From: an uncultured Planctomycetota bacterium
GTDB taxonomy: Bacteria > Planctomycetota > Planctomycetia > Isosphaerales > Isosphaeraceae
Assembly: GCA_963737655.1 (NCBI GenBank)
Contig: CAVTTN010000002.1
Coordinates: forward strand, 4,672,001-4,736,000
Reading direction: 5' to 3'
Length of the DNA stretch: 64,000 nucleotides
Positions within the stretch are counted from its first letter, which is position 1. Each line of letters begins with the position of its first letter. This document shows positions 1-11,079 of the stretch, in pieces. The position numbers and the translations under genes are program-made. The notes beneath the pieces were generated by a model. That model saw only the letters and a program-made list of their open reading frames with translations, made no database searches and was not told where the DNA came from.

Positions 1-968
1 TGCTTCTCGCTCGGGAACCGCCCCACGTCGCCGCCGAGCTCGGCCAGGATCACCGTCGCCGTCGTCGCGTCGATCCCCTCGATGGCCGTCAGGTCCACGC
101 CGATCGCCCGGGCCAGCTTGGCCGGGGCGTCGAACCGCACGTCGTTGGCCTTGCGGCCCCTCTTGCGCGGCCTCGGGGCGACCGGCCCGCCCCCGGAGCG
201 GTCGGGCAGGCGGTCCAGCTCCTCGGCGATCCGGGCGTCGCACTCGTCGACCTGGCGGTGGAGGTAGTGGTACAGGTCGGACGCCTGCTTCAGGGCGAAC
301 AGGTGCTCGGGCCGCCAGGTGCCCTCCAGGGCCCGGGCGATCTCCGCCTCGTCCCGGGCGCACCGCTCGTGCCGCAGCGCGGCCAGCTTCGCCGGGTGGC
401 GCTCGCCGGCGAGGATGGCGGCGATGATCGCCGTGCCGGTGACGCCCGTGATGCTGCTGACGACCTCGGTCAGCTTCACATTCATCTGCTCCAAAGCCTT
501 CTGCATGTGCTGGACGTGGTGCGAGGCGTACCGCACGAGCATCTGCCGCTGCCGCCAGTAGCCGCGCAGGGCCAGGACGGCCCCGGGCGGGCGGAAGGAC
601 GGGCGGAGCAGGCCGCAGGCGTGGAGGCGCTGGAGCCACTGGCAGTCGAGCCGGTCGGTCTTGGGCCGGGCGCCGCAGTGGCTGGCCTGGCTCGGCTCGA
701 TGAGGAAGACCTCGAAGCCGCGCGATTCGAGCAGCTCGAACAGGGGGATCCAGTAGACGCCGGTGGACTCCAGGACCACCGAGGTGACGCCCTCGGCCCG
801 GAACCAATCGGCCAGGGCGTGGAGGTCGGCCGAGCAGGCGCCGAAGGTGCGGACCCGTCCGGGCCCGACGCAGGCGACGTGGTTGTCGGAGTGGACGTCG
901 ACGGCGGCGGCGTGGGGGTGGACGACCGGCAGGGACGCGTCGGGATCGGGGGGCGTGCGGCGACTCAT
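1..968 (-). CDS. IS110-family DEDD transposase/recombinase (3' end runs off window; absent from the ORF track)
   Basis: Manual translation from ATG 968: MSRRTPPDPDASLPVVHPHAAAVDVHSD...VVLESTGVYWIPLFELLE...RPKTDRLDCQWLQRLH...HMQKALEQMNVKL...LTAIEGID...ELGGDVGRFPSEK. D-E-D-D catalytic motifs are present and the frame is open to the window edge. Confidence 0.93.
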   Translation of the reverse strand, partial: MSRRTPPDPDASLPVVHPHAAAVDVHSDNHVACVGPGRVRTFGACSADLHALADWFRAEGVTSVVLESTGVYWIPLFELLESRGFEVFLIEPSQASHCGARPKTDRLDCQWLQRLHACGLLRPSFRPPGAVLALRGYWRQRQMLVRYASHHVQHMQKALEQMNVKLTEVVSSITGVTGTAIIAAILAGERHPAKLAALRHERCARDEAEIARALEGTWRPEHLFALKQASDLYHYLHRQVDECDARIAEELDRLPDRSGGGPVAPRPRKRGRKANDVRFDAPAKLARAIGVDLTAIEGIDATTATVILAELGGDVGRFPSEK

Positions 969-984
969 GGCGAGGGCTCCGGCG

Positions 985-1175
985 GGTGGGGGGCCAAGCC
1001 GTCGCGGGCCGAGAGGGGGTCCGGGGACGAGGTAGTCTCCCCGACGGGAACGTCGCGGGGCCGTGTTGACACGGCGCCGCGGGTCACCAATGATGGGGCC
1101 ACGGCCTCTCGGGCCAGGCTAACCTGCGGGCGGCGAGCACCAGGGAGATGACGGCCGGGAGGCTCGCGACGGCGT
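985..1175 (-). ncRNA. Candidate IS110 bridge/seek RNA in the non-coding end (boundaries approximate)
   Basis: Lies upstream of the transposase. Sequence blocks and hairpin positions are conserved with the two mini-elements. Contains CTAACCTG (1119-1126) matching the attC target. A TAnnnT -10-like hexamer (TACGCT, minus strand) sits at 1181-1186. Confidence 0.6.
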
Positions 1176-1253
1176 GCCCCAGCGTATCGCGCCCGGTGGT
1201 CGGGGCCACCCCCGGTTCACGTCCGTCGGGGAGCGGTCGCAGGCCGCGCGGAG

Positions 1254-1352
1254 AGTTAACCTGGCGCTGCAGCGGACCCGGCCACGCGGGCGGTTCTGGG
1301 AATGCGGATGTCGCTGGGATGTGGCCGGGTCCGCTGAGCTTGGCTGTTAGGC
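1254..1352 (+). other. attC site 1 (integron cassette recombination site)
   Basis: TAAC (1257-1260), GCTGCAGCGGACCCGGCCAC ... GTGGCCGGGTCCGCTGAGC, GTTAGGC (1346-1352). R''/L''/L'/R' layout with an extrahelical G in L''. Confidence 0.9.
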
Positions 1353-1374: not shown

Positions 1375-1806
1375 ATGATGGGCATCGAGCACGTTGACGG
1401 GACCGTCCCCCATCGGACGCGGAAGATGCCCTTTGTGCGCTTCCGCCTTCGCACGCTGATCGCCGTGGTCGCCCTGCTCGCCGGGCTGCTCGCGACATGG
1501 CGAGCCGTCTCCTATCACCTCGCTTACGCTCGCAAGGTCGAATACTCCCGGGATTGGGCGAGGAGCAGCCTGCTCGCGGCGGAGTCCTACCGCAAGCGGG
1601 CTTCCGAACCGGACTGCCCGGCGAAGGATGCCGCCGAGTTGCGATGGCTGGCCAGGAAGGAGGAGCTGATCTCGCGGAGATACGCCGAGATCGCCGCTCA
1701 GCCTTGGCGCCCCTACCCGACGGCGAGTGCCCCTCTTCTGACGCGCCAGGACTGGGACCAGCTCGGAGCCTTCCCGGGCCGGCCACCCGCCCAAGCCGGG
1801 CGCTGA
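1375..1806 (+). CDS. Gene cassette 1: hypothetical protein with N-terminal membrane anchor (start may be 1426)
   Basis: Single ORF between attC1 and attC2. RFRLRTLIAVVALLAGLLA is a basic-hydrophobic N-terminus common in planctomycete small proteins. Confidence 0.7.
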   Translation: MMGIEHVDGTVPHRTRKMPFVRFRLRTLIAVVALLAGLLATWRAVSYHLAYARKVEYSRDWARSSLLAAESYRKRASEPDCPAKDAAELRWLARKEELISRRYAEIAAQPWRPYPTASAPLLTRQDWDQLGAFPGRPPAQAGR

Positions 1807-1842
1807 TCCGAGTCCATCAGCCTTCGGTCGAGACGCTCTCCT

Positions 1843-2221
1843 CTTCGTGAACTCTTTGGCTGGGAACGGCCATCGACGCGCGACACTACCCCAACCCCAG
1901 GCTTTGTGGCCGGGCAGCGGCGAGGTCCGGGTAGCAAACCGACGGATTCAAGAGCGGCGGACGAGGCGCGGGCCGAGAGGGGAGTCGGTTACGCTTGCAG
2001 TCTCTTCGACGGGAACATCCCCGCGAGTCGGCTCGCGGGGCGTCGCCAATGACCGGATCACGACCTCTCGGGCCAGGCTAACCTACGGGCAGGGAGCACC
2101 AAGGTGGAGACGGCCGGGAGGCCCGCGCCACACTCAGGCTACGCCGCGCCGGGTCGGCGGGCAAGTCGTCCCCGACCCCCGTTCACGCCCCGTCGGGAGC
2201 GGACGAAGGCCGCAGGATGGT
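1843..2221 (-). mobile_element. Non-autonomous IS110-derived mini-element, copy 1 (379 bp), in R'' of attC2
   Basis: 376/379 identical to 2643-3021. Segment 1967-2225 is homologous to IS non-coding end 1003-1260. Removing it restores TCCTAAC. Confidence 0.85.
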
Positions 2222-2318
2222 TAACCTCGCGCTGCAGCGGACCCCGCACCGCCGCGGCGTCTCTCGTGGTATCATCATCTTCTCGGCGGTGCGGGTCCGC
2301 TGAGCTTTGTCGTTAGGC
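2219..2318 (+). other. attC site 2
   Basis: TAAC (2222-2225), GCTGCAGCGGACCCCGCACCGCCG ... CGGCGGTGCGGGTCCGCTGAGC, GTTAGGC (2312-2318). Confidence 0.9.
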
Positions 2319-2341
2319 GGCGTTCATCGCGGGGGGTGCGC

Positions 2342-2650
2342 ATGCCCGATCCGAGTTCGCTCCTGATCTTCAGCGAGGACGAGGCGCGGCCGCTTGAGGC
2401 ATACAATCGCTTCGTCGGGACGCTCCCCCCGGAATTGCAGCAACAGCTAAGGGCGGTGCTGATGAGCTATCTGGGCGCTTACGGCCCCGTGGAGACTCTG
2501 GAGCGATTCCGCGGCCGTACCCTCGCCCAAGTGCTGGAGGATTACCATCCGCCCAGCGAGCCGCCGGTCGTGAAGTCCGGCGAACTGGACGGGGTGCGTT
2601 ATACGCTGGACGATCGGCCCGGTTCCGGTGGCAACCCCGCCTCTTCGTGA
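2342..2650 (+). CDS. Gene cassette 2: hypothetical protein
   Basis: Single ORF filling the interval between attC2 and attC3. The inferred original stop is the TAA in the reconstructed GCCTAAC R'' box. Confidence 0.7.
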   Translation: MPDPSSLLIFSEDEARPLEAYNRFVGTLPPELQQQLRAVLMSYLGAYGPVETLERFRGRTLAQVLEDYHPPSEPPVVKSGELDGVRYTLDDRPGSGGNPASS

Positions 2651-3021
2651 ACTCTTTGGCTGGGAACGGCCATCGACGCGCGACACTACCCCAACCCCAG
2701 GCTTTGTGGCCGGGCAGCGACGAAGTCCGGGTAGCAAACCGACGGATTCAAGAGCGGCGGACGAGGCGCGGGCCGAGAGGGGAGTCGGTTACGCTTGCAG
2801 TCTCTTCGGCGGGAACATCCCCGCGAGTCGGCTCGCGGGGCGTCGCCAATGACCGGATCACGACCTCTCGGGCCAGGCTAACCTACGGGCAGGGAGCACC
2901 AAGGTGGAGACGGCCGGGAGGCCCGCGCCACACTCAGGCTACGCCGCGCCGGGTCGGCGGGCAAGTCGTCCCCGACCCCCGTTCACGCCCCGTCGGGAGC
3001 GGACGAAGGCCGCAGGATGGT
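2643..3021 (-). mobile_element. Non-autonomous IS110-derived mini-element, copy 2 (379 bp), in R'' of attC3
   Basis: Direct repeat of copy 1 at an 800-bp offset with 3 substitutions (2720, 2724, 2809). Removing it restores a perfect GCCTAAC. Confidence 0.85.
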
Positions 3022-3117
3022 TAACCTCGCGCTGCAGCGGACCCGGCCACGCGGGCGCGTTATGATCGTGCGGAGCATCCCGGTATGTGGCCGGTCCGCT
3101 GAGCTTATGCGTTGTAC
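3019..3117 (+). other. attC site 3 (last in array)
   Basis: TAAC (3022-3025), GCTGCAGCGGACCCGGCCAC ... GTGGCCGGTCCGCTGAGC, GTTGTAC (3111-3117, non-consensus after GTT). Confidence 0.85.
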
Positions 3118-3231
3118 CTCGTCGGTCGGGCCCTCGCGTGGGTCTCCGGTAAGACGCTCCGAATGGAAGGGGACGGGTGGAGTTTCGAGAGTTTTCGGCC
3201 CGTTCTCCCCGCTGCTATCAGGGCTGGATTC

Positions 3232-3516
3232 TCAAAACCGGACCCGGCCCAGGACGACGAAATCGGTCAGGGCCCGGCCCATCACGGCCCCCCGCTCGGC
3301 ACCCAGGACGGCCCTTGCGAACGGCTCGAACCCGGGCTCGCCCGCCCGGCCCCTCTGGAGCCATCGGTAGAGCGTCGAGGCCCCGACGCCGGACGCCTCC
3401 GCCGCGGCCTCGCGGGACTTCCCCTCGGAGATCGCCGCCACGATCGACAGGGCGGCCCCGGGGGTGAACTTCGAGGGCCGCCCTCCCCTATGCTGCTTCG
3501 GTTTCGCTCTCGGCAT
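3232..3516 (-). CDS. HTH protein, terminase-small-subunit-like
   Basis: GGRPSKFTP...AAAEASGVGASTLYRWL: GRPSK plus HTH, a pattern seen in TerS N-termini. Confidence 0.55.
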   Translation of the reverse strand: MPRAKPKQHRGGRPSKFTPGAALSIVAAISEGKSREAAAEASGVGASTLYRWLQRGRAGEPGFEPFARAVLGAERGAVMGRALTDFVVLGRVRF

Positions 3517-3524
3517 GGCCCGGT

Positions 3525-3830
3525 TCACCTCTGCCTCGGGCCGATCTTGTCCGTCCACTTGCCCCGGTAGTCGGCCAGCCATCCGGCGATCACCGCGTCC
3601 ATCGCGTCGGCGTCGGGCCCCTTGAGCCGGGCCTGGAGGTCGTCCAGGGCCGCGGCGCCGTCGGTGCCTCGGGGGACTTCGACCACCCCGGAGCGGATCG
3701 TCAGGACCACCCCGGCCCGCTCGCACTCGGGCCTTCCTCGGGTCACGGCCAGGGCGTGGAGGAGCTGCCCGCGCCTCGCCCCCCCGGCGGCCCGCTCCAG
3801 GCGCCCGAGCCTGCCCTGGAGACTCGCCAT
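3525..3830 (-). CDS. Hypothetical protein of the element
   Basis: MASLQGRLGRLER N-terminus; tightly packed in the minus-strand gene run. Confidence 0.55.
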   Translation of the reverse strand: MASLQGRLGRLERAAGGARRGQLLHALAVTRGRPECERAGVVLTIRSGVVEVPRGTDGAAALDDLQARLKGPDADAMDAVIAGWLADYRGKWTDKIGPRQR

Positions 3831-3855
3831 CAAGTTGCCTCCCCAGGAACCCCGG

Positions 3856-4068
3856 TCAGTCGATGATGCCGTGCCGCCTGAACGCCGCGACCATCAGCCG
3901 GGCGGCCTCGACGTCGCTCCGGTCGAAGGCATCCGCCACGGCCAACAGCTCCTCATTGGTCAGGGCCCGGATGCCCCGGAGATACTTCCGCCGGGACAAC
4001 CTGCGGACGATGCCGACGGGGCTCCAGGAGTCCTCCAGGCGCCGGACGCGCCCCTCGGCCCGGCTCAC
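3856..4068 (-). CDS. Small hypothetical protein
   Basis: GTG start, SRAEGRVRRLED...; same RxxRLE N-terminal pattern as its neighbour. Confidence 0.45.
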   Translation of the reverse strand: MSRAEGRVRRLEDSWSPVGIVRRLSRRKYLRGIRALTNEELLAVADAFDRSDVEAARLMVAAFRRHGIID

Positions 4069-4465
4069 GACTCGTCTCCCCCTCGTGCTTCTGGTCGGCC
4101 GCGACCTGCTCCAGGAAGGCGATCCGGGCGTCCAGCTCGACGTGGGTCCGTAGCTTGACGGCGGAGTCCAGGACGGCGACAGCGGCCCGGAGCCGGATGG
4201 CCGGGGACGGGTCGGCCAGGAGCTTGTCGAGGGCGGCGGTGGCCCTGGCGGCAGAACGGGCGAGCCGACCGACGGACCGCTCGAAGATGTCGCCACGAAC
4301 CCGGGCGACATAGGAGCAGAACTCGGGCTTGTCCAGCCAATCGTAGACCGTCCGCTCGCCGGCCTTGACCGCCTTGGCCGTGGCCCGGACGGGCCTGCCC
4401 GAGGCGAGCAGCAGGGCGGCCCTCTGCTGCTTGGGGGTCCAGTCTGCGGTGGCATGCGGTGGCAT
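3953..4465 (-). CDS. HTH protein (phBC6A51/TerS-like); true stop may be near 4065
   Basis: WTPKQQRAALLLASG...TAKAVKAGERTVYDWL...PAIRLRAAVAVLD...ELDARIAFLE. Confidence 0.6.
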   Translation of the reverse strand: MPPHATADWTPKQQRAALLLASGRPVRATAKAVKAGERTVYDWLDKPEFCSYVARVRGDIFERSVGRLARSAARATAALDKLLADPSPAIRLRAAVAVLDSAVKLRTHVELDARIAFLEQVAADQKHEGETSREPGRGARPAPGGLLEPRRHRPQVVPAEVSPGHPGPDQ

Positions 4466-4721
4466 GCGGAAATCTCGCATCAGATCGATAACCGGCCAAC
4501 CTCTGCATGCTTGATCGTACAAGCCAGGTTGCGGTTCGTCCAATGGCGACTTGGCCGCCCACCCGCTCGCCGGTCCGATGGACGGAAGCGGTCGGAGGCC
4601 ATAGAGTGGGAAGCATCGGGTCGGTCTCGGGGGTGGCCACCCCCGGGCCTCACGGTCCCGGTCGTCGCGTCGGCCCCACTCCGCCGCGACGGGCGGGACC
4701 GGCCCGAGAGGAGTGGGGAAC

Positions 4722-6120
4722 ATGCCCGAACCCTGGCATCGGCCTCTGGCCGTGCTGCGCGACGAATTCGCCCGACGCTCGGCCGACCTCCGGCATCTGT
4801 TGGTCAGGATCGAACGGAATTCCTACATCGTGCCCCCCGAATGGTGGCAGGCCAGGCCCGGCGAGGAATATTCGCGCCGGGGCCTCCCCGACGAGGCCAT
4901 GTGGCGGATCGAACCCGGCGGGCGCGCCCCCCGTCCGGTCATCATACAACAGACCGAGGACGGTTCGTCCTTCATGTGGAAGCACACGTTCTATGGCCAT
5001 GCCCCCGAGGCTCGAGACTTCTTCATCGACCTCGCCTACCGGGCGTTCCGATGCCTCGCCTCCGCCCCCGCAGGTGAATTTGCACGGCTCGCGGAAGTCC
5101 TAAGAATGTCCATCGATCCGCCGGACCTCGACTACCATAGCCCGGATCTTTGGTGGTTGCGTGCGGTTCACGAGATTGCACGGCGGCGGCATGAAGGCTC
5201 CTCCCTCTGGTCACTCAGCGGGCCGTCCAGTCAATTCCATAGCGTGGAACAAGACCTCCAGTCCCAACGACGTGCCCGAGAGCGAGGGGAAACGGTCGGT
5301 TACGACTTCGGCTACTCGATCCTGCACGGACGTTTTCACTTGCTCGGCGGAGGCCATCGACCTCACCCTCAAGGCCGCCCCGCCCCAGCATTACCCGGCG
5401 ATCGACCGATTCGCCTTCCGGTTTCTCCTGGAGACGATCGATGGCCGTTACTTCCTGTTGGGTGCTCTGCATGATTCTTGGGAGCGCTCCGGGGAGGGAA
5501 CTGGCCCGCCCCAATTTCAGTATCGAGAGATCGCCGACGACGCCGCCCTCGCCTTGCTCGTGGAATCGGGGCTCGCCGACGACCTATCGATTCATCTCCG
5601 AGACGTCCTCGAATGGAACCTCGATCCTTCACGATTGGGTGAACGCGCTGGCTTGTCGGTTGACGCGGGACCAGTGATCCCATCGATTCCGACCGAAGGT
5701 GGAACGGTCCGTCCGCTCAATCCGACAGGGGCCCGCTCTCAGGCCGAAGCGGGCGACTCGCGGGAGGAGGGCGAAGAGCCCGGGCGGGGAGCCGATCTTC
5801 CGGGGATCAGCGCGGCGCCGGGCCTCCCGTCGCCAGATGAGGCCCCGGGCTCCAGCCTCAGGACCCGGTCGAAGCCCGATTCTTTGAACCCGGGCGTGAA
5901 AGCCGTCGCCGCCGCTTACGCATTGCAGGAAGAGGGGTTACCGGTGTCGCTCAAAGCCGCCTGTGAACGCGCAGGAGTGGATCGGAAGAACGTCCGGGAG
6001 CGATACCCGGAGCAAGTCCGCGTGATTCGAGCCCTATCCGCCCCCGATGGTGACGCACGGCGGGGGACGATCGATCGGAGGAGCGGGAATATCGACGCTG
6101 GATATGAGGACGACGAATAG
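4722..6120 (+). CDS. Hypothetical protein with C-terminal HTH-like segment, split over two frames (shift near 5300-5340)
   Basis: Overlapping ORFs 4713-5474 and 5161-6120 each look protein-like in only one half; C-terminal SLKAACERAGVDRKNVRERYP. Confidence 0.45.
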
Positions 6121-6275
6121 GCCCCACCCCACGAAAACACCCCACGGAATTTTCTTGTAGCCCGGAAATCAAGGCGAATGGATGACCCTCCACCCCCCAC
6201 GGCCCCCCCACCCCGCCGGTAGGTCGTGGCCGTCGCGATTGTGACGATGGCCCCGCCCCGGGAGACCCGTGGATC

Positions 6276-6467
6276 ATGGCCAAAGCCCGTCCGCCCGATG
6301 ATTTCAACAACTCCCCGATCGCGTGGTTCGCCGAATTTCTGCATGCTTTGGATGGACGAGACGTCGAGCAAGCCGCCCGAGCGAAGGCCGAACTGACCCG
6401 CTTGGGCTGGACTTTCCGGTATCGGAAGCCCCGCCCCGAGGCCGATGGCCAGGCGGTGGCCCGATGA
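6276..6467 (+). CDS. Small hypothetical protein
   Basis: 63-aa ORF immediately before the AlpA-like gene. Confidence 0.5.
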   Translation: MAKARPPDDFNNSPIAWFAEFLHALDGRDVEQAARAKAELTRLGWTFRYRKPRPEADGQAVAR

Positions 6468-6765
6468 CTCCCCGTCCCGGCCGCCGGACCCGACCGACCG
6501 CCAATCTGATCCAAGAGGCCAATCGACCAAAGGCGGCCGAACCGCCCCTCGGGGCGCCCCCCTCGGACCTGACATCCCTGCCCTGGGCGGTAGGCTCACG
6601 GTCCGCCTGGACGAATTACCCGCTGCCCTCGGAGTGTCGCGGCGGACCATCGAACGCGAGAGGTCCGCCGGCCGATTCCCCAAGCCCGACCTGACGATCG
6701 GGAAGATGCCGCTCTGGCAGCCCCAGACGATCCGAGATTGGATCGCGGGGGGTGGGCGTTCATGA
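6445..6765 (+). CDS. AlpA/Xis-like HTH (excisionase candidate); start uncertain
   Basis: VRLDELPAALGVSRRTIERERSAGRFPKPDLTIGKMPLWQPQTIRDWI; ATGA-coupled to the helicase. Confidence 0.8.
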   Translation: MARRWPDDSPSRPPDPTDRQSDPRGQSTKGGRTAPRGAPLGPDIPALGGRLTVRLDELPAALGVSRRTIERERSAGRFPKPDLTIGKMPLWQPQTIRDWIAGGGRS

Positions 6766-7994
6766 TCCGCCCCTATGACGCCTGGATCCTCGCCCGCCTC
6801 GTCTGCGGCCATTCGCTCAACGGCGAACTGGAATCGGTTTCCCCGGCCCTACGGGGAATCGCCGATCATCTGGCCGGGCTTCCCGACGAAGACCGCCAGA
6901 CGGCCCTCGGGGGATTCCGTTGCTCGCCCGCGATCGACGGCCCCGCCTTGATCAAGGCGATGACCGCTCACCACCCCGATGGACCGGCCCCCGAGTCGGT
7001 CCATGAGCGATGCTATGCAACCCTCGACGACATCGCCCGGGTCGTCGCCGATCAAGCGTGGCTCTGGGGAGACTGGCTCGCCCGGGGCGTCCTGAACGTG
7101 GTGGCCTCCGAGCCGGGGACGGGCAAGACCCGATTCGGACTGGACCTGGCCCGTCGGCTCTGGTTTGGCTTGTCGTGGCCTGACAACCAATTGAATGTGA
7201 TGCCCGGGGGGACGCGGACCCTGTGGATTCAGGGCGACCGCAACTTCGCCGAGATGCTCCAAGCCGCCCGCGACTTCGGACTCCCCGGCGACGCCGTGTC
7301 CCTGGGATCGGCCCCCGACGACCCGACCGGGGCGCTCGACCTGGACGACCCGGGAACGCTGGCGGCCATCGGGGGGAGGATCCAGGCCGCCGCCCCGGCC
7401 CTCGTGGTGATCGACACGGTAGGCATGGTGACCGATCGGAACCTCTGCCGCCCCGAAGAAGCCCGCGCATTCTTCGCCCCGATCATGGAACTTGCCGCGA
7501 GGACGGGCGTGGCCTTCCTCGGTCTGACCCATTTGTCGAAGGACAAGGAGGCCCTGGGTCGGCGGATCGTCGAGAAGGCCAGGGTGGTCATCAAGATGAC
7601 GCAGCCCGATCCCGAAGGCAAGAAGGACCGCCGGAGGTTGTGGGTGGACAAGTCCGCCGTTGTGAAGCCCCCGCCCTTGGGGATCACGATGGGGGACGCG
7701 GGCAACAATTACGACTTCACTCCGCCGACGGAGCCCGAGCCGAATCGGGGGGGACGGCCGCCGGAGAAGCTCGGCAAGGCCATCAAGTTCCTGGCGGAGA
7801 AACTGACCGAGGGAGACCGCAAATGGTGCGATCTGGTCAACGAATGGGAAGCGCTCGGGGGGGCCAAGGGGACCCTCTTCAATGCCTGCAAGGCGATGGT
7901 CGACGACGGTCGGATGGTCGTTGATGAGTCCAAGAAGCCCAAGTTCTGCCACCTGGTCAAGGACTCCGAGGAAGGTCAAGAACACGGTTCCTGA
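6762..7994 (+). CDS. AAA_25/RepA-type replicative helicase-ATPase
   Basis: WLWGDWLARG, Walker A ASEPGTGKT, Walker B LVVIDT, LTHLSK. Confidence 0.85.
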   Translation: MIRPYDAWILARLVCGHSLNGELESVSPALRGIADHLAGLPDEDRQTALGGFRCSPAIDGPALIKAMTAHHPDGPAPESVHERCYATLDDIARVVADQAWLWGDWLARGVLNVVASEPGTGKTRFGLDLARRLWFGLSWPDNQLNVMPGGTRTLWIQGDRNFAEMLQAARDFGLPGDAVSLGSAPDDPTGALDLDDPGTLAAIGGRIQAAAPALVVIDTVGMVTDRNLCRPEEARAFFAPIMELAARTGVAFLGLTHLSKDKEALGRRIVEKARVVIKMTQPDPEGKKDRRRLWVDKSAVVKPPPLGITMGDAGNNYDFTPPTEPEPNRGGRPPEKLGKAIKFLAEKLTEGDRKWCDLVNEWEALGGAKGTLFNACKAMVDDGRMVVDESKKPKFCHLVKDSEEGQEHGS

Positions 7995-8070
7995 CGGTTC
8001 TTGACCCTTGAAGAACCCTTTTCGTGAGCGTCAGGAACCCCGCCCCCCTATGGAGAACCGGGTTGTTGAC
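7975..8070. repeat. Iteron-like GGTTCYTGAC repeat cluster, candidate origin of the element
   Basis: Direct copies at 7986, 7996 and 8061 (1 mismatch); inverted copies at 7975, 8009 (degenerate) and 8030. Confidence 0.5.
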
Positions 8071-8101
8071 CCGAACCGAGGCCCTCCGAGACCCGCGAAC
8101 G

Positions 8102-9276
8102 ATGAAACTCCCTGCCCCCGGACGACACCGGATCGACTGGCAAACCGAGCGCGAGCGGATCGACCTGGCCGCCGTCGCGACCCGCCTACTCGGCCCCGCC
8201 CCGGGACGAAGGGGGATCGTGGCCGGAAGCTGTGGTGGTCCTGCCCCCTCGGGACGCACCCCGACGCGAATCCGTCCTTCGCGGTCGAAACCGGCAGGCC
8301 TTTCTGGCGGTGTTTCGGCTGCGGCGAGTCGGGGGACGCCGCGAACCTCGTGATGAGCCTGGAGTCGTTGACGTTCCCCGAAGCCCTGGACTACCTGACC
8401 GGCGGTGCGACTTCCACAAAGCCGCGAGGCCCGAGCAAAGCCGCCCCGAGACCGGCGAACAAGGCCCTGGCCGGCCCATCCGGGATGCCCGAGGCCGACG
8501 CCCTGGCCCTCGTGGAAGCCGCCGCCGCCCGGCTGTGGACCCCCGAGGGGGCCGACGGAATGGCGTATCTGACCGGCCCCGAGCGCGGCCTGGCCCCCGA
8601 GACGATCCGGGCGGCCCGGCTGGGGTGGACGCCTCGGGCGGAAGGGGTGGCGTGGAGGCCGCCCGGCGTGGTCGTTCCGTGGTTCGTGGGCGAGCGTCTT
8701 GCACTGGTCAAGATCCGGCCCCCGGACGAGTGGAGGAAGCGATTCCCGCCTGAGAAGCGCCCTCCGAAATATCTGGAGGCGTTCCGCGATCCAGCTCGCG
8801 TCGTCTGCTACCCCGGCCTATCGACGATCCGCGCCGGCCTTCCCCTCATCGCCGTGGAGGGGGAGTTCGATTGCCTTGCCCTCGGGGAGGCTCTGGACGA
8901 AATGGCTAGCGTGGTGAGCCTGGGAAGCGCCTCGGCCGAGCCGACCCCCGACATCCTCGGCCGGTTCCTGGCCGCGAGCCCGTGGTTCATCGCCACGGAT
9001 GCCGATCCGGCGGGGGAACAGGCCGCCGCCAGGTGGCAAGCCTACCCCCGGGCTCGGCGGGTCCGCCCTCCGGCCCCTTACAAGGATTGGACCGAGGCCC
9101 GCAACGATGGCGTGAACCTCCGCCGCTGGTGGGGGGACATCTACGCCGGCAACGACCACCCTCAGCTATTCACCGATGAGGAAGCGGCCGAGTGGCGGTG
9201 GGGACCGGCCGTCGGGGACGGTTCGCCCGGGATTATCGTTCCCGCGATACGTCGGACGGAGAGCCCGGAAAAATGA
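8102..9276 (+). CDS. DnaG-like primase (CHC2 zinc finger + Toprim); apparent frameshift near 8213
   Basis: IDWQTERERIDLAAVA is in one frame, then WSCPLGTHPDANPSF...CFGC, AVEGEFD and ATDAD in another; a G run lies at the switch. Confidence 0.8.
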
Positions 9277-9297
9277 CCCAATTGGGTTAGTGAACTA

Positions 9298-9325
9298 TTG
9301 TAACATAACCCGAACGGGATATAAT
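9298..9325 (+). promoter_or_regulatory. Sigma70-type promoter for the HTH-integrase unit
   Basis: TTGTAA-16 nt-TATAAT in an AT-rich patch; imperfect palindrome GGGTTA...TAACCC (9284-9311) overlaps the -35. Confidence 0.6.
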
Positions 9326-9381
9326 CCGGGTGAGGTGGAGGAGGAACGGGGCGAGGATCGGACCGAGTGGGACCTACCTCG

Positions 9382-9650
9382 ATGGCCAAGGAAGAGACGA
9401 ACCCACCGACGATGACCGGGACGATCCGCGAGACGATCCTGGCCCGGTCCCTGACCGCATACCGGGTGGGTCAGGCGATCGGGACTCGTTCCCATGTCAT
9501 CCAGAGATTCCTCAACGGGGAGCGAGACCTACGGGCGCGACCCTCAACAAGCTGGCCGCCGCCCTCGGGTTGACGCTGACCCAGACGGAGGCCGGTCATC
9601 CCGACCTGAAAGGAGCAGCGGATGGCGTCGTTCCGCAAGATCGGTCGTAA
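9382..9650 (+). CDS. XRE-family HTH regulator; apparent frameshift near 9535
   Basis: LTAYRVGQAIGTRSHVIQRFLNGERDLR continues as ATLNKLAAALGL in another frame. Confidence 0.7.
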
Positions 9651-11079
9651 TTGGTTCTTCCGGTATATCACCGCGGAGGGCATCCAGCGCGAACGAAAAG
9701 GGTGCCCCGACCGTCGGGAAACCGAGGCGATGGCGAACGCCTGCGAAGCCGAGGCGGCCCGGATTCGGTCCGGCCTCTCGGACTCGAAGGAAGAGGCCCG
9801 CCGCCGGTATGAGTCGCGACCGCTCGCCGATCACCTGGCCGAATGGCACAAGGCGATGCTCGCCCAGGCGGCGACCCCGAAGCATGCCAATCAGTGTCGA
9901 GGGCGGGTCGATTCGCTCCTGAAGCTGTCCAGGTCGGATCGCGTCTCCGACCTGACGGTCTTCAGGGTCCAGACGGCCCTCGGCATTCTCCGCGACAAGG
10001 GGGACGGCCTGGCCCTTCGGACGCTCCACCACTACGTCCGCAACGCCAAGGCGTTCTCCCGATGGCTCTGGCGGGACGGGCGGACGACGGAAGACAAGCT
10101 CGCCCATCTCCAACCCCCGGCGAACCCTGACACGGACCGCCGCCGCGAGCGTCGTGCCCTGACACCCGAGGAAGTCTCGGCCCTGCTCCGAGCCGCCGAA
10201 TCCGGCCCCGTGGTCTTCAAGATGTCCGGCGTCGATCGGGCCGCCATGTACCGGCTGGCCCTCGGGACGGGATTCCGAGCCGGCGAGTTGCAATCGCTCC
10301 GGCCCGAATCCTTCGACCTGGACTCCGACCAGCCGACCGTGACCGTCGAGGCCGGGCACTCCAAACGCCGCCGTCGCGACGTCCAGCCGATCCGGGGCGA
10401 CCTGGCCACGTCCCTCGGTCGATGGCTCTCCGGGAGGCCCGCCAAGGCCGCGCTATTCCCCGTATCGAGCTACCACACGGCCGAGATGTTCCGTGCCGAC
10501 CTGGAACGGGCAGGAATCCCCTTCCGGGACGACTCGGGGCGAGTGGCCGACTTCCACGCCCTGCGACACACCTTCGTCTCGACGCTGGCCCGGAGCTCCG
10601 CCTCGGTCAAGGTCGTCCAGACGCTCGCCCGGCACTCGACGCCCGTCCTGACCCTCGGGACCTACACGCATTTGGGATTGTGCGACCAGAGGGCCGCCCT
10701 GGAAGCCCTGCCCGCCGAGCAGCCCCCCGGCCCCGGGGCCGAGTCGGCGACCCAGGCCGCGACAGGAACGCATGGCCGTATGAACAATCATCCTTCCCTA
10801 CGCCTTCCCTACGGAGGGGACGGGACAGGGCGGATTGTGTCGGAGCCTGACGGTTCGGGCGAGGCGAGCACCCTCGAATTTACCGGATCGTCGTCGAACC
10901 ATAACCCCCTTACAAAGTCGGCAGTTGTCGCGTCGAGTCGGTCCCTGTCGGACCCTGACGGAAGCGGAGGGGGTGGGATTCGAACCCACGGACGTTTTGA
11001 GGCGTCAGCGGTTTTCAAGACCGCCCCGATCGGCCACTCCGGCACCCCTCCGATCGGTCGACTCGACTCGATTCATTGA
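9622..11079 (+). CDS. int: Tyrosine recombinase/integrase
   Basis: GTGFRAGEL (R), HSKRRR (K), DFHALRH (HxxR), LARHS, GTYTH (Y); adjacent to and overlapping the tRNA. Confidence 0.92.
   Translation: MASFRKIGRNWFFRYITAEGIQRERKGCPDRRETEAMANACEAEAARIRSGLSDSKEEARRRYESRPLADHLAEWHKAMLAQAATPKHANQCRGRVDSLLKLSRSDRVSDLTVFRVQTALGILRDKGDGLALRTLHHYVRNAKAFSRWLWRDGRTTEDKLAHLQPPANPDTDRRRERRALTPEEVSALLRAAESGPVVFKMSGVDRAAMYRLALGTGFRAGELQSLRPESFDLDSDQPTVTVEAGHSKRRRRDVQPIRGDLATSLGRWLSGRPAKAALFPVSSYHTAEMFRADLERAGIPFRDDSGRVADFHALRHTFVSTLARSSASVKVVQTLARHSTPVLTLGTYTHLGLCDQRAALEALPAEQPPGPGAESATQAATGTHGRMNNHPSLRLPYGGDGTGRIVSEPDGSGEASTLEFTGSSSNHNPLTKSAVVASSRSLSDPDGSGGGGIRTHGRFEASAVFKTAPIGHSGTPPIGRLDSIH
10965..11051 (-). 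tRNA. tRNA-Ser(TGA), CCA not encoded
   Basis: GGAGGGG/CCCCTCC acceptor stem, anticodon arm GCGGT-CTTGAAA-ACCGC, long variable arm, GGTTCGAATCC T-loop, discriminator G. Confidence 0.95.

Follow-up and report, generated by a model that had tools for sequence, protein, structure and literature searches.

The closest described counterpart of the element reported here is MITEPpu9 (ssr9), a transposase-free MITE (a short transposable element of the miniature inverted-repeat type) of the IS110-family insertion sequence (IS) ISPpu9 in Pseudomonas putida KT2440, which bears a sense RNA and, according to the main text of its description, forms circles in a transposase-dependent manner (PMC12288879). 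The bridge-RNA elements of the IS621/IS110 kind, as presented in the body of the reports on them, carry a recombinase gene (PMC11208160, PMC13626964), and the IS1111-attC group (ISKpn4, ISPst6 and ISPa25) is described in the main part of its report as inserting under RNA guidance at one fixed position of attC sites (PMC11187229). The DNA analysed here, a stretch of 64,000 nucleotides termed the window, comes from an uncultured Planctomycetota bacterium (genome G000, contig C2; other G and L numbers denote other genomes and loci). It holds two copies of an element, hereafter the mini-element, that likewise occupies one fixed attC position and, in contrast to IS621, has no recombinase gene. We consider it probable that the mini-element transcribes its own bridge RNA, loads a helper transposase with it, departs in circular form or as a copy and integrates at the T of the attC R'' box. 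Such an element makes it possible to ask, in a natural setting, whether a bridge RNA serves its encoding element alone or can also act in trans.

Results

A 380-bp element without a transposase gene

An earlier note on this DNA had described two 379-bp copies with three differences between them, the removal of which was said to restore TCCTAAC and GCCTAAC. Two copies of 379 nt (1843-2221 and 2643-3021) with three differences (1920, 1924 and 2009) are indeed present; however, a T flanks them on both sides, and excision of 379 nt leaves this T doubled. For this reason the mobile unit is taken to be 380 bp including one core T (Table 1), the excision of which gives TCCTAAC and GCCTAAC. A BLAST search against the whole genome recovered 28 full-length copies at 87-100% identity, which comprise ten sequence variants (the commonest with 15 copies) and stand in eight clusters with mostly different flanks. 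This copy number is far above chance and is not an assembly duplication, which the earlier note had named as a way in which it could be wrong. Termini, orientation and insertion base are identical in all 28 copies, the base being the T of the attC R'' box, so that the predicted preference for this box over random sites holds without exception; one of the copies precedes a truncated attC. The names of the attC boxes (R'' and R') and the crossover position of the integron integrase follow general usage.

The mini-element is made up of a shortened far end and the complete near end of the IS110 that lies beside it in the window. Its ends align with those of the IS, the transposase gene is absent, and the homology claimed earlier to the non-coding end of the IS (1003-1260) is found at 70.5% identity over 271 columns. 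The absence of a credible open reading frame (ORF) was likewise confirmed, since the 126-codon stop-free frame of the G000 variants is interrupted in relatives from a same-genus genome (G080) and from locus L037, and has no Pfam match. The hallmarks of a classical MITE, terminal inverted repeats and a target-site duplication, are lacking; all that is seen is a single shared T and a sub-terminal repeat of 7 bp (1846-1852 and 2181-2187). What is found instead are the features of a non-autonomous IS110 element, namely both ends without the gene, dispersed and precise copies at the target of the IS, an empty site and an intact cognate transposase.

Target choice and an empty allele

By motif scan, G000 contains 79 attC sites, of which 27 hold a mini-element, eight hold the IS110 or a truncated piece of it and 44 are empty; a profile search added ten degenerate sites, none preceded by an element end, that are excluded from these counts. 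Occupancy follows the first hexamer of the site, such that 35 of 53 sites starting with TAACCT are filled (27 by mini-elements and eight by IS110) versus 0 of 26 with other hexamers, 13 of which are TAACCC and many of those copies of one cassette. When distinct attC bodies are counted, the figures are 33 of 49 versus 0 of 17 (Fisher p=9e-7; for mini-elements alone, p=6e-6). The hexamer is insufficient for targeting by itself, because TAACCT occurs 317 times in the chromosome. A cassette of ~331 bp, whose TAACCC attC is never occupied, recurs in numerous copies, some in tandem and others in different arrays (Table 1).

The earlier note had further predicted that an empty allele would rejoin at the insertion base, and this is what is observed: the same cassette is empty at C2:6787901 and filled at C2:1971065, with 98.8% identity across the exact rejoined base. 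In a second empty/filled pair, 86% identical, the empty member bears a non-matching hexamer.

Could the copies have spread with their cassettes instead, by way of the integron integrase, duplication or assembly artefact, without any transposition of the element? The surroundings are those of an integron, with R'' and R' boxes, a bottom-strand hairpin, cassette arrays and an integrase (TIGR02249, 474 bits) that adjoins one array. Moreover, a block bearing a mini-element is duplicated from the exact G|TT border, and through such events some copies may be carried along by cassettes; a duplicated block with the make-up mini-cassette-mini is also seen. However, only two pairs of mini-elements share a left flank, the others standing in different cassettes, and the exact empty allele, the ten sequence variants and the presence of the family in attC of another genome argue against this route. 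As a general explanation it is refuted; it accounts for a few copies only, and we hold it to be extremely improbable.

Two low-share sets of sequencing contigs cover attC-like pieces and partial mini-like pieces and yielded nothing on circles or expression. A short repeat with a GGGTCAAAAAGGGGACG motif breaks one attC and one truncated IS (C2 near 286720 and 6792400) and is probably another small mobile element.

A predicted bridge RNA with guides for its own end and target

Relatives came from a DNA search of 121 genomes of the family (16 with a match) and from a scan for transposases (79 loci). Only relatives whose leader could be aligned clearly were retained, five distant rows being dropped before alignment, and the + strand of the window served as the top strand for the guide analysis. 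The consensus fold of 15 leaders displays the two enclosed domains with internal loops of a bridge RNA; 97.8% of cells are paired and 24 are double-change cells, with none of 500 shuffles as high, although these are related sequences in which nearly all double changes fall within a single hairpin. The RNA predicted on this basis is the most conserved interior part across the four mini variants and has no match in Rfam.

In the first loop, the 3' side is the complement of the target sequence on the right of the junction, with a mean of 4.5 matches in 5 over 12 distinct guides versus 1.75 when shuffled (p=5e-5, a permutation value that is overstated because related elements are non-independent). 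In the second loop, the 3' side matches by complementarity the end of the element itself in all 37 rows, a set in which some loci were fetched twice, and across four end haplotypes (CCCCA in 30 rows, CCCCG in 3, CTTCG in 3 and CTTCA in 1). This two-loop fold, with guides that match the element's own target and own end, bears out the proposal that both ends and a guide region were kept while the recombinase gene was lost. Both of these clear guides are intact in all 28 copies. A promoter-like motif upstream of the predicted RNA is also present in every copy (as TAGCCC in the second hexamer of three) and in the G080 and L037 relatives; inspection by eye revealed no junction-formed promoter. An assignment of guides with the minus strand as top, which placed a second target guide inside the donor domain, was overturned by the consensus fold.

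A fundamental question is whether this RNA is used. The end and the donor guide of the mini-element differ together at two bases from every autonomous relative examined, and this co-change is the strongest sign in the sequences that the RNA serves the element. A third donor base covaries between G000/G080 and L037, and both CTTC end types, with their GAAG guides, are restricted to transposase-free elements. An alternative is a passive MITE, of which the ends alone matter, the helper IS110 giving both protein and, by wobble, guide RNA, whereas the RNA inside the element would be a leftover or would contribute a single loop to a split guide. The target guides of mini-element and helper are identical over the seven matched bases, so that site choice cannot separate the two explanations, and the donor guide of the helper could read the mini-element's end via two G:T wobbles, which would make the element's own RNA possibly dispensable. 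Two precedents point the same way: Ssr9 is dispensable for ISPpu9 transposition (PMC12288879), and split or truncated loops are functional in other IS110 systems (PMC13626964; 10.1101/2025.10.25.684509). However, a relic would not be expected to mirror the change of its own end at two bases and to covary at a third, nor to have a donor domain better conserved than the linker (81 of 105 versus 53 of 109 columns across four mini variants), and for these reasons we regard the passive MITE as unlikely.

Several further observations, along with the wobble, the shared target guide and the non-independence noted above, weigh against the proposed mechanism. The 5'-side target guide is weak (2.37 of 5 versus 1.8 when shuffled) and in the mini-element fits the flank well only with a one-base slide, and a 5'-side donor guide was significant at none of the six offsets tested. 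The target guide of the L037 mini-element misfits its own site unless slid by two bases, which would also be in keeping with a passive MITE. The handshake dinucleotide agrees with the element's own end in 21 of 24 cases, yet it differs between IS copies of G000 that have a common end and is weak evidence. Finally, G080, a 77% complete assembly, holds a close transposase only as a 3' fragment.

The promoter-like motif was too weak to be listed in a consensus promoter scan, the sole find of which was an antisense promoter in the IS.

A resident IS110 as candidate helper

The IS110 beside the mini-elements is 1.8 kb long, encodes a 450-aa DEDD transposase and is present in eight genome copies, all eight at the base used by the mini-elements, in line with what the earlier note had seen at attC1. 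The window copy starts 546 bp before the window (G000:C2:4671455-4673256). The complete 450-aa ORF is found in six of the eight copies, and alignment to the IS621 transposase (8wt6) shows that the catalytic E, D, D and S positions are kept. This transposase is the likely helper recombinase of the mini-element, on which it would act in trans. Its guide region lies upstream of the 450-aa gene and not, as in the IS1111-attC group, downstream of a short transposase; the helper is therefore IS110-type rather than IS1111-type.

Other IS110s are present in the genome. A second, single-copy IS110 (C2:4847312-4848527; L004) has its own upstream leader and heads another attC array; its protein is 32% identical, and differences in its ends and leader led us to set it aside as a candidate helper. 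Both ends are preserved in two single-copy IS110s with internal deletions (C2:1680651-1681646, 996 bp, and C2:6791945-6792592, 648 bp), the 648-bp one having lost the donor loop.

The antisense promoter is sigma-70-like and was the one found versus 0.2 in shuffles; it is present in seven of the eight IS copies and absent from the mini-elements, where the corresponding loop is shortened. It lies within the loop of a hairpin in the bridge region of the IS, a loop of the same sequence as at L037 and L038, and may give rise to an Asr9-like RNA or to transcription of the cassettes downstream. This arrangement raises the possibility that the mini-element's RNA is regulatory, as proposed for Ssr9, that is, a sense copy of the transposase (tnp) leader that soaks up antisense RNA and tunes the helper, its mobility being incidental. 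A strong antisense promoter in the bridge region of the IS, absent from the mini-elements, matches the Asr9/Ssr9 layout as set out in the main text of PMC8450116, and the L037 mini-element lies directly behind an IS, as ssr9 does behind ISPpu9. However, a sponge should stay helper-like, whereas the mini-element is only 70% identical to the helper and differs exactly where its own end differs; moreover, both roles can coexist. A purely regulatory explanation is therefore, in our judgement, quite improbable.

An old lineage and other gene-less derivatives

In G080 the family is present at 83-85% identity as one full copy and three copies at contig ends, and all three mini-elements with a visible flank lie in attC. 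The L037 relative is 391 bp long, 75% identical and directly behind an IS whose protein is 84% identical. In a tree of 24 rows, with a midpoint root only, the four mini-elements of G000, G080 and L037 form one side of a branch (support 99/98) with a long stem, apart from the co-resident IS110s, and the mini-element is for this reason an old lineage and not a fresh deletion.

Other gene-less derivatives, of 470-490 bp and with ordinary ends, are found at L178 (G038), L180 and L213 (G026) and L015 (G005). Two of them sit beside autonomous elements in the tree, so gene loss with the leader kept has occurred more than once. In three of them the deletion follows a similar pattern, and every target guide fits the site of its own element; these derivatives may be a second mini lineage. 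Tandem insertions are also seen, as IS behind IS (L047 / L129) and as mini-element behind IS (L037), the latter as in ISPpu9-ssr9.

A class-wide pattern search of 401 genomes found GAAG-type mini-elements only in G000 (28) and G080 (3). Two pattern scans of metagenome contigs gave 0 matches each, the plasmids searched held no match, and six pattern matches in viral contigs, none confirmed by profile, are taken as chance. A covariance-model search of the 121 family genomes, with 23 candidates scored per genome, gave matches in 28 genomes, and no further GAAG-type element was present in the subset of matches examined. A ~100-bp repeat with nine copies in G115:C1 (e.g. 328120-328222) gave borderline matches to the RNA model that the nucleotide profile did not confirm.

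Insertion and the cassettes

The TAAC of the R'' box is retained on insertion. The cassette 2 ORF formerly stopped at the TAA of R'' and now ends Ser-Ser-stop within the end of the mini-element. Throughout the genome, an ORF of at least 60 codons enters the R''-TAA frame (Ser-Ser-stop) at 14 of the 28 mini-element sites versus 6 and 4 for the other frames, some of these being probably chance ORFs of GC-rich DNA. In a filled attC the bottom-strand hairpin would keep its body and lose the outer R-box pairs (-30.0 versus -32.8 kcal/mol). Insertion would cost a cassette little, given that a replacement stop codon is supplied and TAAC is kept.

After attC3, an integrated element, by appearance a small prophage or a phage satellite, occupies 3118-11051 of the window and ends at a tRNA-Ser (10964-11051). 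Left of the array and just upstream of the window, three ORFs (L001:11524-14075) resemble an IS66-type element.

Table 1. Coordinates of the features discussed (window positions unless a contig is given)
Feature	Position	Strand	Remarks
IS110 transposase gene, 5' part	3-968	-	450 aa in full; PF01548 and PF02371
IS110 non-coding end with predicted bridge RNA	969-1256	-	upstream of tnp; target guide 1119-1125, donor guide 1037-1043
Sigma-70-like antisense promoter TTGACA-17-AATGAT	1066-1094	+	10/12 consensus matches; opposes the IS bridge RNA
attC1	1257-1352	+	IS110 inserted in R'' box
Cassette 1 ORF	1375-1806	+	143 aa, no Pfam match
Mini-element copy 1	1842-2221	-	380 bp with one core T; 14 further copies in the genome have the same sequence
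Predicted bridge RNA, copy 1	1960-2130	-	~170 nt, inferred ends; from consensus fold and pair counts
Donor guide, copy 1	2002-2008	-	complementary to the element's own left junction 1841-1847
Target guide, copy 1	2078-2084	-	complementary to CTAACCT of empty attC
Promoter-like motif TTGCCC-17-TAGCCT	2136-2164	-	upstream of predicted RNA
attC2	2222-2318	+	
Cassette 2 ORF	2336-2650	+	104 aa
Mini-element copy 2	2642-3021	-	guides and promoter motif offset +800 from copy 1
attC3	3022-3117	+	degenerate R' box GTTGTAC
AAA_25 protein gene	6738-7994		integrated element
CHC2/Toprim primase-like gene	8008-9276		integrated element
Phage integrase gene	9622-11079		integrated element; PF00589
~331-bp cassette repeats	C2:284000-284664, 1673484-1674475, 1969903-1972566, 6778517, 6787364		

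Discussion

We hypothesize that the mini-element is a non-autonomous IS110-family transposon that lacks a recombinase yet has its two ends, a promoter inside the element and a gene for a bridge RNA. Its RNA would load onto transposase that the resident 1.8-kb IS110 supplies in trans. Of the two loops, the donor loop would pair with the junction of the element itself, and the other, the target loop, would read CTAACCT at the attC R'' box. The mini-element would then leave as a 380-bp circle, by excision or copy-out, and enter the same base of another cassette. With TAAC kept and the stop replaced, insertion would cost the cassette little; about a third of the attC sites have been reached. The steps after transcription are modelled on the work on IS621 and ISPpu9. 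The argument itself is drawn from genomic sequence, in which copy number, site specificity, the empty allele, guide matches, covariation, a separate lineage and intact helper genes all point to this proposal.

More tentatively, the mini-element may be an old, RNA-only parasite lineage that has re-coded its donor end and guide, such that its RNA mobilises only itself while the helper's RNA still serves it by G:T wobble. Having a promoter of its own and being free of the antisense brake, it would capture the helper's recombinase and compete for the same attC base, and mini-elements outnumber the IS110 28 to 8. By base-pairing logic, the donor guide of the mini-element meets two A:C clashes at the helper's end. 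Since the helper guide can read the mini-element's end by wobble and the mini-element's guide cannot read the helper's end, one-way exploitation is predicted, and the same asymmetry leaves room for supply of the RNA by the helper. If the one-way reading is true, this would be a natural orthogonal donor/guide pair, with exploitation written in base pairing.

The mini-element bears on how selfish elements evolve private donor/guide pairs, on the biology of the IS110 family and on the design of orthogonal bridge recombinase tools. For the integron, a third of the attC sites in the genome carry a hitch-hiker that may alter cassette mobility or expression, and programs that find attC sites will be misled because the R'' box is split from its cassette by 380 bp.

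How does the mini-element compare with described systems? IS621 has the donor core CT, as opposed to TT here, and the clear 3'-side and weak 5'-side guide signals of the mini-element are unlike those reported in the main texts on IS621 (PMC11208160, PMC13626964). Its promoter is apparently internal, whereas in IS621 and IS110 it is formed at the circle junction (PMC11208160, PMC13626964). The IS1111-attC elements are described as autonomous, with the RNA downstream of a transposase of 330-350 aa (PMC11187229); here the main occupant of attC is gene-less, and the helper is IS110-type, with a protein of 450 aa and the RNA upstream.

The earlier note had gone too far in treating this kind of element as undescribed, since MITEPpu9 is published and resembles the mini-element in several respects. 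According to the main texts, MITEPpu9 also lacks a transposase, has both IS ends with few mismatches and shares the target of its IS (PMC12288879); its small sense RNA is related to the tnp leader and has a promoter of its own, and the element stands either alone or in tandem behind the IS (PMC12288879, PMC8450116). It differs in target, which is the repetitive extragenic palindrome (REP) and not attC, in number (8 copies versus 7 of the IS, compared with 28 versus 8 here) and in its known range of three near-identical strains (PMC12288879), whereas the mini lineage spans 73-88% identity. The main text, supplements aside, treats Ssr9 as an antisense sponge and has no bridge-RNA analysis or guide/end covariation (PMC12288879). 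A full-text literature search, judged mostly by title and abstract start, with few subscription papers and without ISfinder or supplements, yielded neither an attC-homing IS110 MITE nor a MITE with a guide covarying with its own ends, and the portions of a MITE review that were covered hold no passage on IS110 or attC (PMC10969869). Thus, the RNA-bearing IS110 MITE is itself already known, and the features that appear to be new are attC homing and a donor guide matched to the element's own ends; on this comparison, the Ssr9 RNA of P. putida may likewise be a bridge RNA.
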